32,000 nt of DNA from Candidatus Harpocratesius repetitus (GCA_021498095.1 JAIZWK010000001.1:1860001-1892000), one strand, 5' to 3'. Positions 6,803-30,271 are shown, numbered from the stretch's first letter. Notes: generated by a model from the letters alone, not told the origin. Made by a program: numbers and translations.

Positions 6803-7483
6803 ATGTACTATAAAATTCCTTCAACACTTCGAGAACAATTAGCTCAACCTATTGGTCACCATTTTATTGGTAACCTTGAGCAGACTGATGAACTAATAGA
6901 CAAATGGATCGCTCAACAAATATCAAAACATACTCTTTCGTCCACCTCTATCTCAGTTCCATTATCTAATTCAAATTTTTCTTCAACTCAAAATTTTAAT
7001 AGTTATTCCAAATATCAACAAGATCTGATTAAAAACCGACCTTCTTTCCCTATCATTTCATGTGTTGGAGATGTTGTTAGTAAAACTTTTATTGAAAAAG
7101 AGTATTTACGACCTTATCTTAAATATTGCTTTATTGATGGAGGTACACAACGAGGGAAAAAAATTGATATTACTCACTATCCAAATTTTAAACAACGTAA
7201 ATTTCATAATCCGGCAGGTTGTATAAATGATGAAATCATTGATTTTATCAAGAAAACACGAGATGATCTTCACCAATATATCGTATGGATTGATGGAGAA
7301 GAAGATCTACTGGTTATTCCACTTATTTTAAAAATAAATCATGGTTTGGTTTTTTATGGACAACCTCCGCTTACCGATCTTGATCCTCAAATTCCTGCTG
7401 GATGTGTTGGGATTCGAATAACCCCCCAAATCCAAAATAAAATCGAGATTTTATTCAATCAATTTATTCTCATCTCAGAGTGA
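6803..7483 (+). CDS. DUF359 family, GTP-dependent dephospho-CoA kinase
   Basis: LREQLAQPIG, CVGDVVS, IDGGTQR, NPAGCI, IDGEEDLLVIP, VFYGQP...GCV motifs; canonical position between spt4 and rps24e. Contains a Ser/Asn-rich insertion. Confidence 0.9.
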   Translation: MYYKIPSTLREQLAQPIGHHFIGNLEQTDELIDKWIAQQISKHTLSSTSISVPLSNSNFSSTQNFNSYSKYQQDLIKNRPSFPIISCVGDVVSKTFIEKEYLRPYLKYCFIDGGTQRGKKIDITHYPNFKQRKFHNPAGCINDEIIDFIKKTRDDLHQYIVWIDGEEDLLVIPLILKINHGLVFYGQPPLTDLDPQIPAGCVGIRITPQIQNKIEILFNQFILISE

Positions 7484-7537
7484 GCAAAACACTTTCAGAA
7501 GCGCAAAAATTTTTTTGTAATGATACATTTTTGCAGA

Positions 7538-7598
7538 TGAGCTGAAAACGAAGGTCACTTACGGTATTACCGTGGGCCACCAGATTCAGTTTAGGTGA
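7538..7598 (+). promoter_or_regulatory. Kink-turn hairpin in the rps24e leader, abutting the SD (AGGTGA 7593-7598)
   Basis: C-stem GCUGAA(7541-46)/UUCAGU(7585-90), 3-nt bulge AAC, tandem G50.A84 and A51.G83, A.A, then G-C, G-C, U-A; apical stem ACGGU/ACCGU. Confidence 0.6.
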
Positions 7599-7603
7599 AA
7601 AAT

Positions 7604-7951
7604 TTGGTAGATATAAACGTTTTAAATAAAAAAGCAAATCCTCTTCTCCATCGTACTGAGATTGAGTTTGAGATTGAGCATTTAGGCTCTGGATCTCCAA
7701 ATCGATTGGAAGTTCGGGAGAAGTTGGCAGCAATGATGACTGCAAAAAGCGAATTGACTTTTATTCGCAGCATGAAACCGCGATTTGGCATACCGCAAGT
7801 TCATGGAATGGCACACATTTATGATGATGAAGCCACTGCTGAAAAAATTGAACCTACATACATCAAGATCCGTAATATGGAAAAAGAAAAACGGAATGAT
7901 GCATGGAAAGCTGAAAAAGCCAAAAAGAAGAAAAAGAAAAAGAAAAAATAA
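7604..7951 (+). CDS. rps24e: 30S ribosomal protein eS24 (S24e)
   Basis: NPLLHRTEIEFEIEHLGSGSPNR..VREKLAA...FG...G.AHIYD. TTG 7604 after the AGGTGA SD is preferred to the track's GTG 7595. Poly-Lys C-terminus. Confidence 0.97.
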   Translation: MVDINVLNKKANPLLHRTEIEFEIEHLGSGSPNRLEVREKLAAMMTAKSELTFIRSMKPRFGIPQVHGMAHIYDDEATAEKIEPTYIKIRNMEKEKRNDAWKAEKAKKKKKKKKK

Positions 7952-7968
7952 TCAGGTGAAAAATTAAA

Positions 7969-8421
7969 ATGAGCATAAATAAAGTAGAAGGCTTACAAAA
8001 AATTTACACAACTGGTTCAATGACAACATATCGTGTACAGAAAGCAGCCAAAATTGCGGATTTATTAAAAGATTTGCATTTAGAAAGTAAATATTTTGTT
8101 ATTTTAGTTGAGGGTAAAAAAGCATCCCCAAATTCATTCATTGACAAAAATGCAGAAATAACCATTCTTCCTAAAATTGCTGGAGGTGGACGAGGTCGTC
8201 GAAATGTTAAAACAAAAGAAAAACGACAAAAACCACCACGCAATAAAAATAAAGGTCCGATGTGGTCTGTTGAGAATGGAAAAGTTGTTCGTAATCGTAA
8301 AAGTTGTCCTAAATGCGGACCTGGGGTCTTTATGGCTGATCATTATGACCGTCAAAGTTGTGGAAAATGCGGATATACACAATTTAAACGGATAAATCGT
8401 AAAATTCCCTCTAAAAAATAA
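7969..8421 (+). CDS. rps27ae: Ubiquitin-like (SAMP/MoaD/ThiS beta-grasp) domain fused to 30S ribosomal protein eS31 (S27ae)
   Basis: aa1-73 end [21 protein letters not shown]....[16 protein letters not shown] (Ubl, codons to 8187). aa74-150 contain a basic extension and [25 protein letters not shown] (S27ae zinc finger). AGGTGA SD at 7954-7959. Confidence 0.93.
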
Positions 8422-8492
8422 ATAAATCAATTATTTTTCGAAATTTTTTTTTATGATTTTAGTTGTTTTTTTATACTTTTTCGTGATTTCAG

Positions 8493-10331
8493 ATGCCACA
8501 ACCATTTCTTTGCTTGGGAATTGAATCCACCGCACATACATTCAGCGTAGGAATTGTAAATGATAAAGGTAATGTATTAGGACTTTCTTCAGATACATAC
8601 ATTCCTCCAAAAGGTGGATTAAAACCGACTGACGTGGTAGAGCATCATTATAATGTATTTGAGAAGCAACTTAAACAAGCTTTACAACAAGCTCAAGTTG
8701 ATTTAAAAGATATTCAATTAATTGCATTCAGCCAAGGACCCGGATTGGGACCATGTTTGAGAGTTGGAGCTGCAGTTGCTCGAACTTTGGCATTAAAATT
8801 AAAAATTCCACTAGTAGGTGTAAACCACTGTATTGCACATGTGGAAATTGGACGGGTGGCATGTAATTGCGATGATCCTCTTACAGTATATGTTTCTGGA
8901 GGAAATACAATTATCAGTGCCTTTGAATCAAATAGATATCAAATATTTGGAGAAACAATAGATATATCAATTGGCAATTTACTTGATATGGTTGCGAGAG
9001 ATCTTGGTATTCCCCATCCTGGTGGTCCAAAGATGGAGCAAATTGCTCTTAAAGGAAAAAATTTCATCAAAATTCCATATATCGTAAAAGGTATGGATCT
9101 TTCATTCTCAGGATTATATTCTTATTGTCGGAAAATGCTTCATGATAATGGATTACTTAAAGAATCAATAACAAAAAAAGCAGTTCAATCCCAGAAAAAG
9201 GTTATTTGTAAAGAAGATTTAGTATACTCTCTTCAAGAAACTGCATTTTCCATGATTGGAGAAGTATGTGAACGTGCTATTGCTCATACTCATAAAAAAT
9301 CTGTTCTACTTACAGGTGGAGTAGCCGCAAATCGACGACTTCAAAAAATCATTGCAGACATATGTGAACATCAGCAAGTTGATTTTAACGTAGTTCCAAG
9401 ACGATTGGCTGGTGATAACGGGGCTATGATTGCTTGGACTGGATTTTTACAATATCAAAACAGCGGAGAAACTTCTATTGAAAATTCTGAAATAATTCCA
9501 AAATGGCGTATGGACGATGTTCCAATTTCGTGGAGAGCTGTTCAAATATCTAAATCAAAATTTAGAGAAATAAGCAATACTTCAAGTTTTAGTGTTAGTT
9601 CTAATCCCCAAATTCAAAATTTATTTTCTCATTTTTTAAGGTCAACCAATGTTGATGGAAAGACGGGAATTTTAAGTAATTTCCTCCAAAATTTTGAAGT
9701 AATTGGGCACGGTGCTGAAGCAGTTTTAGTTCGAATCAATTGGTTTGATAAACCTGCACTTTTAAAATATAGAATTAAAAAATCTTATCGTATTTCAGCA
9801 ATAGATTTACCCTTGCGAATTCATCGAACTATTACTGAAGGACGACTCCTAATTTCTTTGTATCAAGCAGGGATTCCAGTACCTTTAGTTTATGATATAA
9901 TACCAAATGAAGCTGCTTTGATTATGGAATTTATTGAAGGGAATCGATTAAAAGATAAAATTCCAGAATTACCTACTCAAAAAATTCAACAGTATTCTTA
10001 TTTAATTGGAGAATATTTAGCTTTAATGCATAATCTAGAAATTGGCCATGGCGATTTAACCACCTCAAATGTAATCTTAAAGCCTAACCACCAGTTAATT
10101 TTACTTGATTTCGGATTAAGTGTTCCTGATGTTGGAATTGAAGAAAAAGCTATGGATATTCATTTATTTCAGCGCGTAATTAAAAGTTCTCATGGAGATT
10201 ATTTTGATTTAATGGTTCCTGCATTTTTGGATGGTTACAAGCATCAAATTGCTGGTAATTATGAAGAAATTATGGAGCGGGTGGAAAAAATATCCTTACG
10301 TGGGAGATACATCTCTAAATCACTTCGATAA
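8493..10331 (+). CDS. kae1: Bifunctional KEOPS Kae1 (TsaD)-Bud32 fusion, t6A tRNA modification
   Basis: LGIESTAHT, FSQGPGLGPCL, VNHCIAHVEIG, VYVSGGNT, GGVAAN, DNGAMIA (Kae1); GAEA, HGDLTTSN, LLDFGL, E.KAMD.HL (Bud32 kinase). Confidence 0.97.
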   Translation: MPQPFLCLGIESTAHTFSVGIVNDKGNVLGLSSDTYIPPKGGLKPTDVVEHHYNVFEKQLKQALQQAQVDLKDIQLIAFSQGPGLGPCLRVGAAVARTLALKLKIPLVGVNHCIAHVEIGRVACNCDDPLTVYVSGGNTIISAFESNRYQIFGETIDISIGNLLDMVARDLGIPHPGGPKMEQIALKGKNFIKIPYIVKGMDLSFSGLYSYCRKMLHDNGLLKESITKKAVQSQKKVICKEDLVYSLQETAFSMIGEVCERAIAHTHKKSVLLTGGVAANRRLQKIIADICEHQQVDFNVVPRRLAGDNGAMIAWTGFLQYQNSGETSIENSEIIPKWRMDDVPISWRAVQISKSKFREISNTSSFSVSSNPQIQNLFSHFLRSTNVDGKTGILSNFLQNFEVIGHGAEAVLVRINWFDKPALLKYRIKKSYRISAIDLPLRIHRTITEGRLLISLYQAGIPVPLVYDIIPNEAALIMEFIEGNRLKDKIPELPTQKIQQYSYLIGEYLALMHNLEIGHGDLTTSNVILKPNHQLILLDFGLSVPDVGIEEKAMDIHLFQRVIKSSHGDYFDLMVPAFLDGYKHQIAGNYEEIMERVEKISLRGRYISKSLR

Positions 10332-29728: not shown

Positions 29729-30097
29729 CTACTTTCGCAATGCAGCTACTTTTTTGATTATATCCTTTAGATCGCTCTCAGTTTCTTTTGGTGCATTTGT
29801 AATTGCTAAAGCAGAACAAGGAATACTAATATTTGCAGCTTTCCCCAATTCAGCCCGAGTATTTACGAAAACATATGGTACCTTCTTTTCTTTTGAAATT
29901 GCAGGGAGATGCATAACAATTTCAGCAGGAGAAATATCGCCCGCGATAACTACTAATTTTGCAATACCTCGTTCAATAGCTTTTGTGGTTTCGTTCATGC
30001 CTTTTTTGATTTTGCCTTGTTTATTAACCGTAGTTTTCACAAGGTCTAAGACTTTAGTTTTAAGAGCATCCGGAATTTCTATATCGATGTAGGACAT
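29729..30097 (-). CDS. rpl7ae: Ribosomal protein L7Ae (eL8), kink-turn-binding protein
   Basis: GKIKKGMNETTKAIERGIAKLVVIAGDISPAEIVMHLP...VPYVFV..R.ELGKAA. ATG 30097 (MSYIDIEIP) has a GAGGT SD upstream and is preferred to TTG 30118. Confidence 0.98.
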   Translation of the reverse strand: MSYIDIEIPDALKTKVLDLVKTTVNKQGKIKKGMNETTKAIERGIAKLVVIAGDISPAEIVMHLPAISKEKKVPYVFVNTRAELGKAANISIPCSALAITNAPKETESDLKDIIKKVAALRK

Positions 30098-30104
30098 TTG
30101 TGTG

Positions 30105-30171
30105 TCAACCTCATTCAAAGTTGCCTAAAAGGGCTTCTTATCATTATTTCATCGGTTAAACGCATTTAACC
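30105..30171 (-). promoter_or_regulatory. Kink-turn in the rpl7ae 5' UTR that includes the SD, plus a competing hairpin
   Basis: Minus strand UUAACC-GAU-GAA (30159-30148) pairs with UGA-GGUUGA (30113-30105): 6-bp C-stem, GAU bulge, G.A/A.G, A-U. Alternative hairpin GGUUAAA-UGCG-UUUAACC (30171-30154). Confidence 0.75.
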
Positions 30172-30271
30172 AATAAAAGAGCAAAAGCAACGTAAAAATA
30201 AAATTTTTCGGTTTGGTTATACTTATTTTAACACTGATAAAATAAATAAGAGAAAGAATAAATCCTTTTTC

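Follow-up and report, generated by a model that had tools for sequence, protein, structure and literature searches.

A conserved K-turn leader before rps24e-rps27ae of Candidatus Harpocratesius repetitus appears to imitate 16S rRNA helix h33 and may be a translational operator read by L7Ae

The window, by which we mean the whole stretch of 32,000 nucleotides of Candidatus Harpocratesius repetitus DNA that was analysed, carries the ribosomal protein genes rps24e and rps27ae, with Kae1-Bud32 downstream of S24e and S27ae according to Pfam, and, 22 kb from the leader described here, l7ae (Table 1). The leader occupies the spacer between a DUF359 gene (6803-7483) and rps24e. Pfam and equivalog matches confirm that L7Ae is encoded in the window, as a sequence-only reading of this DNA had claimed; the sole other L7Ae-family member in the genome is L30e, and eS12 is absent from it. 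The start of rps24e was placed at TTG 7604 by alignment of ten orthologues and not at GTG 7595 as in the ORF list. Within 8421-8493 (plus strand) a T-rich run follows the rps27ae stop and a promoter-like motif, CGAAATTTTTTTTTATG, lies at 8441, 52 nt before the ATG of kae1/bud32, so that the controlled unit is probably rps24e-rps27ae only; kae1/bud32, which had been counted into the same operon from the sequence, probably has its own promoter.

Table 1. Features of the rps24e leader, the genes behind it and the candidate ligand gene, in window coordinates.
Feature	Position	Strand	Details
BRE/TATA promoter-like motif	7503-7520	+	GCAAAAATTTTTTTGTAA; predicts a transcription start at ~7538-7542, the first C-stem bases
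C-stem, 5' strand	7538-7546	+	UGAGCUGAA; U7538-A7546 paired with U7585-A7593, 9 bp in the MFE fold
K-turn bulge, L1-L3	7547-7549	+	A7547 A7548 C7549 (AAC), three nucleotides
Bulged-strand core, GAAGGUC	7550-7556	+	G1b, A2b, 3b, GGU of the NC stem, mismatched C
Variable distal hairpin on the NC stem	7557-7577	+	8 bp, loop AUU here; apical hairpin of the MFE fold at 7558-7576
Non-bulged-strand core, CACCAGA	7578-7584	+	mismatched Y, ACC of the NC stem, 3n, G2n, A1n
C-stem, 3' strand	7585-7593	+	UUCAGUUUA; last base is the first SD base
Shine-Dalgarno (SD) sequence of rps24e, AGGUGA	7593-7598	+	GGUGA in 14 of 14 leaders, 5-8 nt before the start codon
rps24e (S24e)	7604-7951	+	PF01282, 98.6 bits; likely TTG start
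rps27ae (eS31), Ubl domain fused in front	7969-8421	+	PF01599, NF001669; own AGGUGA at 7954-7959, 10 nt upstream
l7ae (L7Ae/eL8), candidate trans-acting ligand	29732-30097	-	PF01248, 92.5 bits; TIGR03677 equivalog, 140.6 bits

The minimum free energy (MFE) fold of 7530-7610, at -21.7 kcal/mol, is the same structure as the K-turn that the sequence-only reading had drawn, with its C-stem, AAC bulge, G.A plus A.G tandem, NC stem and apical hairpin in the same places. The GCUGAA/UUCAGU helix makes up the inner six pairs of the 9-bp C-stem. Beyond the bulge follow the non-canonical pairs G7550.A7584, A7551.G7583 and A7552.A7582 (the 3b.3n pair), the NC stem G7553-C7581, G7554-C7580 and U7555-A7579, and the mismatches C7556xC7578 and A7557xC7577. 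The sequence and its predicted fold have the hallmarks of a standard K-turn, namely a three-nucleotide bulge next to a Watson-Crick C helix, tandem G.A/A.G pairs and an NC helix (GGU/ACC) after 3b.3n.

The single-sequence signal for this K-turn is at chance level and is not significant alone. The fold of 7530-7610 has a z-score of -2.39 and is equalled by four of 200 shuffles, and a descriptor for K-turn hairpins (six or more C-stem pairs, a 3-nt bulge, GA/GA, three or more NC-stem pairs) found two matches in the window as against 1.8 expected from shuffles. Both values would suit a chance look-alike of a K-turn with no function, an explanation that we find barely conceivable because the comparative data contradict it: four genera share the element, with covariation, carrier genomes have it just once and at a single locus, and it is identical to h33. 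Conservation and covariation in 14 distinct leaders, together with the identity to the K-turn of 16S h33, are the grounds on which we accept the leader element as real. The second descriptor match (7016-7055, minus strand) lies antisense within the DUF359 coding region and was taken as the expected chance match.

Upstream regions of rps24e were taken from 60 related genomes, 14 genomes of the family and metagenome and genome collections; scans of these collections gained just four new leaders, and nine further S24e relatives from a protein search were left out. The resulting 14 distinct leaders, which are mutually related and all come from one family, have the common block (C-stem)-NNN-GAAGGUC-(variable hairpin)-YACCAGA-(C-stem')-GGUGA. 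Conservation of the GA pairs in relatives, the lack of which the sequence-only reading would have counted as a refutation, is found within this one Asgard family: GA is constant on both strands in 14 of 14 leaders, and five of the nine C-stem pairs show compensatory changes. The bulged-strand core has constant G, A, G, G, U and C, the non-bulged-strand core constant A, C, G and A, with changes confined to 7n (C/U), 4n (C/U) and 3n. GGU/ACC and the mismatched C never change; C-stem, bulge and distal hairpin, by contrast, are each replaced from one genus to another. The C-stem is exchanged wholesale (GCUGAA/UUCAGU, AGUUAAA/UUUAGCU, AGAUCAA/UUGAUCU, GCUAGA/UCUAGC, UAUCA/UGAUA), the bulge reads AAC, AUU, GUU, AAA, GAA, UAU or AGU, with L3 never G and in 8 of 14 leaders U, and the distal hairpin, present in every leader, varies in length and sequence with compensatory changes. 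A plain 3-nt bulge occurs in 11 of 13 complete leaders; the C-stem of two leaders contains an additional bulged U, and the leader of G008 is irregular.

The proposed pairs fill 89.7% of cells in a MAFFT alignment, with compensatory changes at six pairs and at most 48% paired when the partners are slid, and 92.9% in a model-based alignment, with compensatory changes at seven pairs and at most 45% paired after sliding. Unguided RNAalifold recovered the C-stem (seven of its pairs) and GGU/ACC. A covariance model, R1, was used for genome searches. It gave one match of 57.5 bits in the genome of Ca. H. repetitus (runner-up 22.8 bits) and found no other copy of the element in this whole genome. A single strong match per genome (50-78 bits, next best at most 24 bits) was obtained in 10 of 14 Promethearchaeaceae genomes, and every strong match lies directly before rps24e. 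The positive genomes belong to genera g1, g5, g6 and g7 (four of the seven genera of the family), and the leader carriers include Promethearchaeum syntrophicum MK-D1 and Lokiarchaeum ossiferum. By eye and by R1 the leader was not found in genera g2, g3 and g4 of the same family; R1 matched none of 148 further Asgard genomes drawn from the whole phylum, and none was seen by eye in other Asgard families. A relaxed core pattern matched 19 times in the genome and 9-19 times in shuffles, and the two matches that were examined lie inside genes and have no stems.

The Ubl-eS31 fusion is found only in genus g1 and on one metagenome contig (L039). Fused or not, and in the leaderless genera too, eS31 of family f1 has a basic N-terminal extension of about 25 aa, which the sister family f3 does not have; such an extension of eS31 was called eukaryote-specific in a 2024 review. 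Across the family, presence of the leader correlates neither with the fusion nor with the basic N-terminal extension.

In 12 of the 13 complete leaders an AAAWTTTW motif stands at a fixed distance upstream of G1b (43-46 nt), the intervening sequence having diverged, and within the window this promoter-like motif is also found before rpoE1, l7ae and kae1. Going by the usual geometry of archaeal promoters, we infer that transcription starts at the first C-stem bases, in which case the entire 5' UTR would be the hairpin and the SD. The stem was seen by the sequence-only reading to end on the first base of AGGUGA, and A7593 is indeed shared by the two; with the putative start, the element would be a K-turn in the 5' UTR adjoining the SD. 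The start codon is TTG or GTG in 13 of 14 leader-bearing rps24e genes and ATG in 20 of 20 leaderless orthologues, a contrast that is not a statistical test because the sequences are related. The l7ae gene has a leader of a different make (30098-30175, minus strand), which lies downstream of a promoter-like motif, CCGAAAAATTTTAT, and reads UUAACC-GAU-GA ... GA-GGUUGA with the SD GAGGU inside the 3' strand of the C-stem. Its ACC-[G/A]AU-GA and GA-GGUU parts are kept in the family, and it looks like the known L7Ae autoregulatory class.

Because the rps24e leader keeps GA on both strands, GGU/ACC and the C after it constant while their surroundings change, the rRNAs of the genome were searched for this core. 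Both 16S copies carry GAAGGUC-AGGUUGACGACCU-UACCAGA; the 23S rRNA of the genome has no GAAGGU and so no such site. The 16S site sits between the universal CUUACC and GGUGCAUGG blocks, which places it in helix h33, where the Rfam archaeal SSU consensus structure has a C-stem CAGCAG/CA-GCUG, a 6x3 internal loop AAUGAA/AGA and a helix GGUCAGG/CCUUACC. At the position of a c-g pair in the archaeal consensus, the h33 helix of this lineage carries a C.U mismatch. The leader copies the loop (AACGAA/AGA), the three pairs and the lineage-specific mismatch, as C.C or C.U, and its bulge is AAC where that of the rRNA is AAU. Where leader and rRNA of the same genome are both available, 12-14 of 14 core positions agree, and differences occur only at 3b, 3n, 4n and 7n.

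Leader and rRNA K-turn (KT-33) thus have in common the core G1b-A2b-A-GGU-C/Y-ACC-A-G2n-A1n, a 3-nt bulge starting with AA, a C.Y mismatch after three pairs and a capped distal helix. They differ in that the leader element is part of an mRNA and its C-stem is regular Watson-Crick, against G-C, A.A and a bulged A in the rRNA, and in the rRNA distal stem-loop (AGGU-UGACG-ACCU), which is absent from the leaders. Since neither the C-stem nor the distal stem-loop is homologous to rRNA, the element would be a selected copy of a site and not a recent rDNA duplicate. Judged by its sequence, the leader imitates KT-33 of 16S h33, the 'beak' of the 30S subunit. The rRNA genes themselves have an unusual layout at 2300729-2305614 (G000:C1), with the 23S directly upstream of the 16S on the same strand and a 286-nt gap between them; the other 16S and 23S copies lie ~77 kb apart (G000:C1 724577-805945).

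In the Pyrococcus 30S head a copy of L7Ae (L8e) occupies KT-33 in h33, where eukaryotes have eS12, a placement predicted to hold for archaea without exception (PMC3553981). Practically all K-turns that have been tested are folded and bound by L7Ae (PMC6298567), and by way of K-turns beside the SD in 5' UTRs it represses its own mRNA as well as others; the -1b:-1n and 3b:3n pairs of these operator K-turns make their folding protein-dependent by published rules (PMC5539422, PMC6298567). The -1b:-1n pair is C:G in none of the 14 leaders (A-U in the one from the window), G is lacking at 3n in 12 of them, and 3b.3n is mostly A.A, a composition from which the leader K-turns are expected to require protein for folding. 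Because these positions fit the protein-dependent operators, L7Ae is expected to bind, and by analogy with those operators we regard its binding to the leader as likely. The copying of KT-33, a published L7Ae site (PMC3553981), supports L7Ae as a strong candidate ligand, as the sequence-only reading had suggested.

L7Ae might then be the only ligand, the leader adding to an L7Ae regulon of the kind to which the l7ae and nop5 leaders of Sulfolobus belong, and GGUC/YACC only tuning folding or affinity. The broad K-turn binding of L7Ae and its natural site on KT-33 would agree with this, as would the family-conserved K-turn-type leader of l7ae (ACC-GAU-GA ... GA-GGUUGA), according to which the circuit exists in the lineage. 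We nevertheless consider action of L7Ae alone unlikely. The l7ae leaders of the same genomes use other NC stems, so L7Ae does not need that of KT-33, and strict invariance without covariation at three pairs and a copied mismatch, with all else replaced, would be unexpected of a site read by L7Ae only. Two points weigh against any reading centred on L7Ae: it tolerates many NC-stem sequences, which leaves the invariant GGUC/YACC unexplained, and the bulge, with U at L3 in only part of the leaders, is not conserved, although L7Ae is said to recognise a bulged U (PMC3553981).

That L7Ae does not explain the frozen GGU/ACC and mismatch is the main argument for a second reader of the site, and eS31 suggests itself for this role. 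In archaea the beak is made up of h33, eS31 and eL8 (PMC11274626; PMC7196836, for the Thermococcus 30S), and loss of h33 takes away more than 80% of the eS31 interface (PMC6321566), the placement of eS31 in these papers being at helix level. Given this occupancy of h33 and eS31 as the product of the second gene of the operon, the leader would copy a site shared by L7Ae and eS31; neither the h33 mimicry nor eS31 (rps27ae) as the other h33 protein figured in the sequence-only reading. That eS31 takes part is a serious though still tentative proposal. It is more doubtful that L7Ae and eS31 bind jointly as on h33, so that a miniature 'beak' would be assembled on the mRNA.

eS31 could also be an autogenous repressor of the Nomura type by itself, with the K-turn copied only to shape its site and L7Ae dispensable. 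It is encoded in the operon, h33 provides most of its ribosomal interface, and the copied segment reaches beyond the K-turn core; against this, a perfect K-turn is unlikely to stay unoccupied in a cell with plenty of a protein that binds K-turns with high affinity, the leader lacks the distal stem-loop of the rRNA, and eS31 has been placed on h33 at helix level, so that we think this improbable. Any ligand in need of the distal stem-loop would not bind the leader. The product of the first gene, S24e (eS24), had been named as an alternative controller from the sequence. It is encoded by the proximal cistron and binds promiscuously in Thermococcales, but it is canonically bound in the major groove of h17, a helix of the 30S body, with an extra site at H45 (PMC3553981), neither of which is h33 or a K-turn, whereas the leader copies h33. 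We set S24e aside on these published sites and rate its binding to the leader as very improbable.

The reading that we favour on balance is that the leader is a translational operator which mimics rRNA and is bound by L7Ae, probably with eS31 as its partner, and most likely a feedback brake on ribosomal protein synthesis. When L7Ae and eS31 are in excess of free 16S rRNA, L7Ae would clamp the leader K-turn, eS31 would probably join it by reading the copied GGUC/YACC segment, and the RNP would lie right against the SD and the weak TTG/GTG start. Initiation at rps24e would be lowered and rps27ae affected by coupling or mRNA decay, and we infer that the net effect is rather probably repression. 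The presence of its own SD before rps27ae speaks against this operator model.

How the SD would be closed depends on the genus. RNA-only folding of genus g1 leaders leaves the SD mostly unpaired, with unpaired probabilities of 0.8-0.9 for both G's, so that occlusion is assumed to come about sterically or through entrapment. In leaders of the MK-D1 clade (L004, L005, L007, L037, L038), the C-stem ends in two wobble pairs to which the SD contributes its two G's, and a competing hairpin, ACCAGA/UCUGGU with loop UUGA, pairs the SD when the K-turn is unformed. This hairpin has 6-7 bp and is nearly isoenergetic with the K-turn fold, its UCUGGU being the C-stem end plus the SD; it is absent in genera g1, g5 and g7. 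On these predicted folds, protein binding in the MK-D1 clade could in principle open the SD instead of closing it, and a two-state switch is possible there.

The hairpin might also act with no specific repressor, as a 5'-terminal, possibly L7Ae-coated guard against 5' exonucleases, or in the MK-D1 clade as a switch arm or SD-opening activator. The predicted transcription start would make it the 5'-terminal part of the message, the g1 K-turn fold leaves most of the SD unpaired, and the g6 clade has the alternative SD-pairing hairpin. A stability hairpin requires neither a K-turn nor a copy of an rRNA protein site, however, and the alternative hairpin is confined as described above; we judge this explanation quite improbable.

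A search of the whole window against Rfam 15 at the gathering threshold gave no match, and at E <= 10 the region 7400-7700 had only chance-level matches (E > 0.3), none of them relevant. The archaeal leaders that Eckert and Weinberg 2020 describe (L4, eL15 and two S15; PMC7247131) do not include the present one, nor is this leader mentioned in the L7Ae RIP-seq and structural papers or in a survey of Asgard ribosomal protein clusters. The sequence-only reading knew of no description of it, and we found none in Rfam or the literature searched. A box C/D sRNA was considered and rejected: AGAUGAG at 7536-7542 is followed directly by CUGA, neither strand offers a terminal D box or guide spacing, and Rfam returned no snoRNA match.

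To our knowledge, very few cis-regulatory RNAs are known in archaea, and none were found described for Asgard archaea. The Methanococcus L1 operator is an rRNA-mimic leader of a ribosomal protein under Nomura-type autogenous control. The rps24e leader resembles the rRNA-mimic leaders of eL15, S15 and L4 (PMC7247131) in being a covarying structure upstream of a ribosomal protein operon and in its likeness to an rRNA site of a protein encoded in that operon; it differs from them in its operon, its Asgard lineage, a mimicked site shared with L7Ae, which is encoded elsewhere, and having no Rfam family. With the 5'-UTR operator of l7ae in Sulfolobus acidocaldarius and Archaeoglobus fulgidus (PMC5539422, PMC6298567) it has in common a simple K-turn hairpin in a short 5' UTR beside the SD, combinations of -1b:-1n and 3b:3n that are predicted to be protein-dependent, and L7Ae as the expected ligand. 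The two RNAs are not homologous: the rps24e leader belongs to rps24e-rps27ae, its bulge is AAC, AUU, AAA or GAA and not GAU, its NC stem is an invariant copy of KT-33 including the mismatch, and its SD comes after the C-stem and not within the stem-loop. The yeast RPL30 K-turn (L30), as cited in PMC5539422, likewise joins an L7Ae-family protein, an mRNA K-turn and feedback on a ribosomal protein; in that account the yeast system also controls splicing, has L30e acting on its own gene and holds no copy of KT-33.

Asgard archaea are the closest prokaryotic relatives of eukaryotes, and in the eukaryotic beak eS12 replaced L7Ae and eS31 became ubiquitin-fused. The leader bears on the evolution of the ribosomal beak, with a fusion similar to eukaryotic ubiquitin-eS31 in the same operon. 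If eS31 is involved, the leader would provide the first feedback loop on record for this protein, and a shared scaffold protein, L7Ae, and an operon-specific protein would jointly read one rRNA mimic. If the two do bind jointly as on h33, archaea might follow a general rule by which the L7Ae sites KT-15, KT-25 and KT-33 are copied into leaders of the genes for neighbouring proteins, and under such a rule L7Ae would be a shared co-repressor coupling several ribosomal protein operons to the supply of rRNA. Should the joint beak exist, the rps24e leader would be the first experimentally approachable ribosomal protein leader in Asgard archaea; the element is small, sharply defined and present in both cultured members of the group, MK-D1 and L. 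ossiferum.

In the same genome, the leader of rpl15e has no obvious K-turn by eye. The leader of an rpl14e-like gene outside the window (G000:C1:1315228-1315340, minus strand) has a C-box-like CUGAUGA ... CGA-GGUG overlapping the SD, which we take as a lead towards, and not as evidence for, a rule of L7Ae plus neighbour protein.
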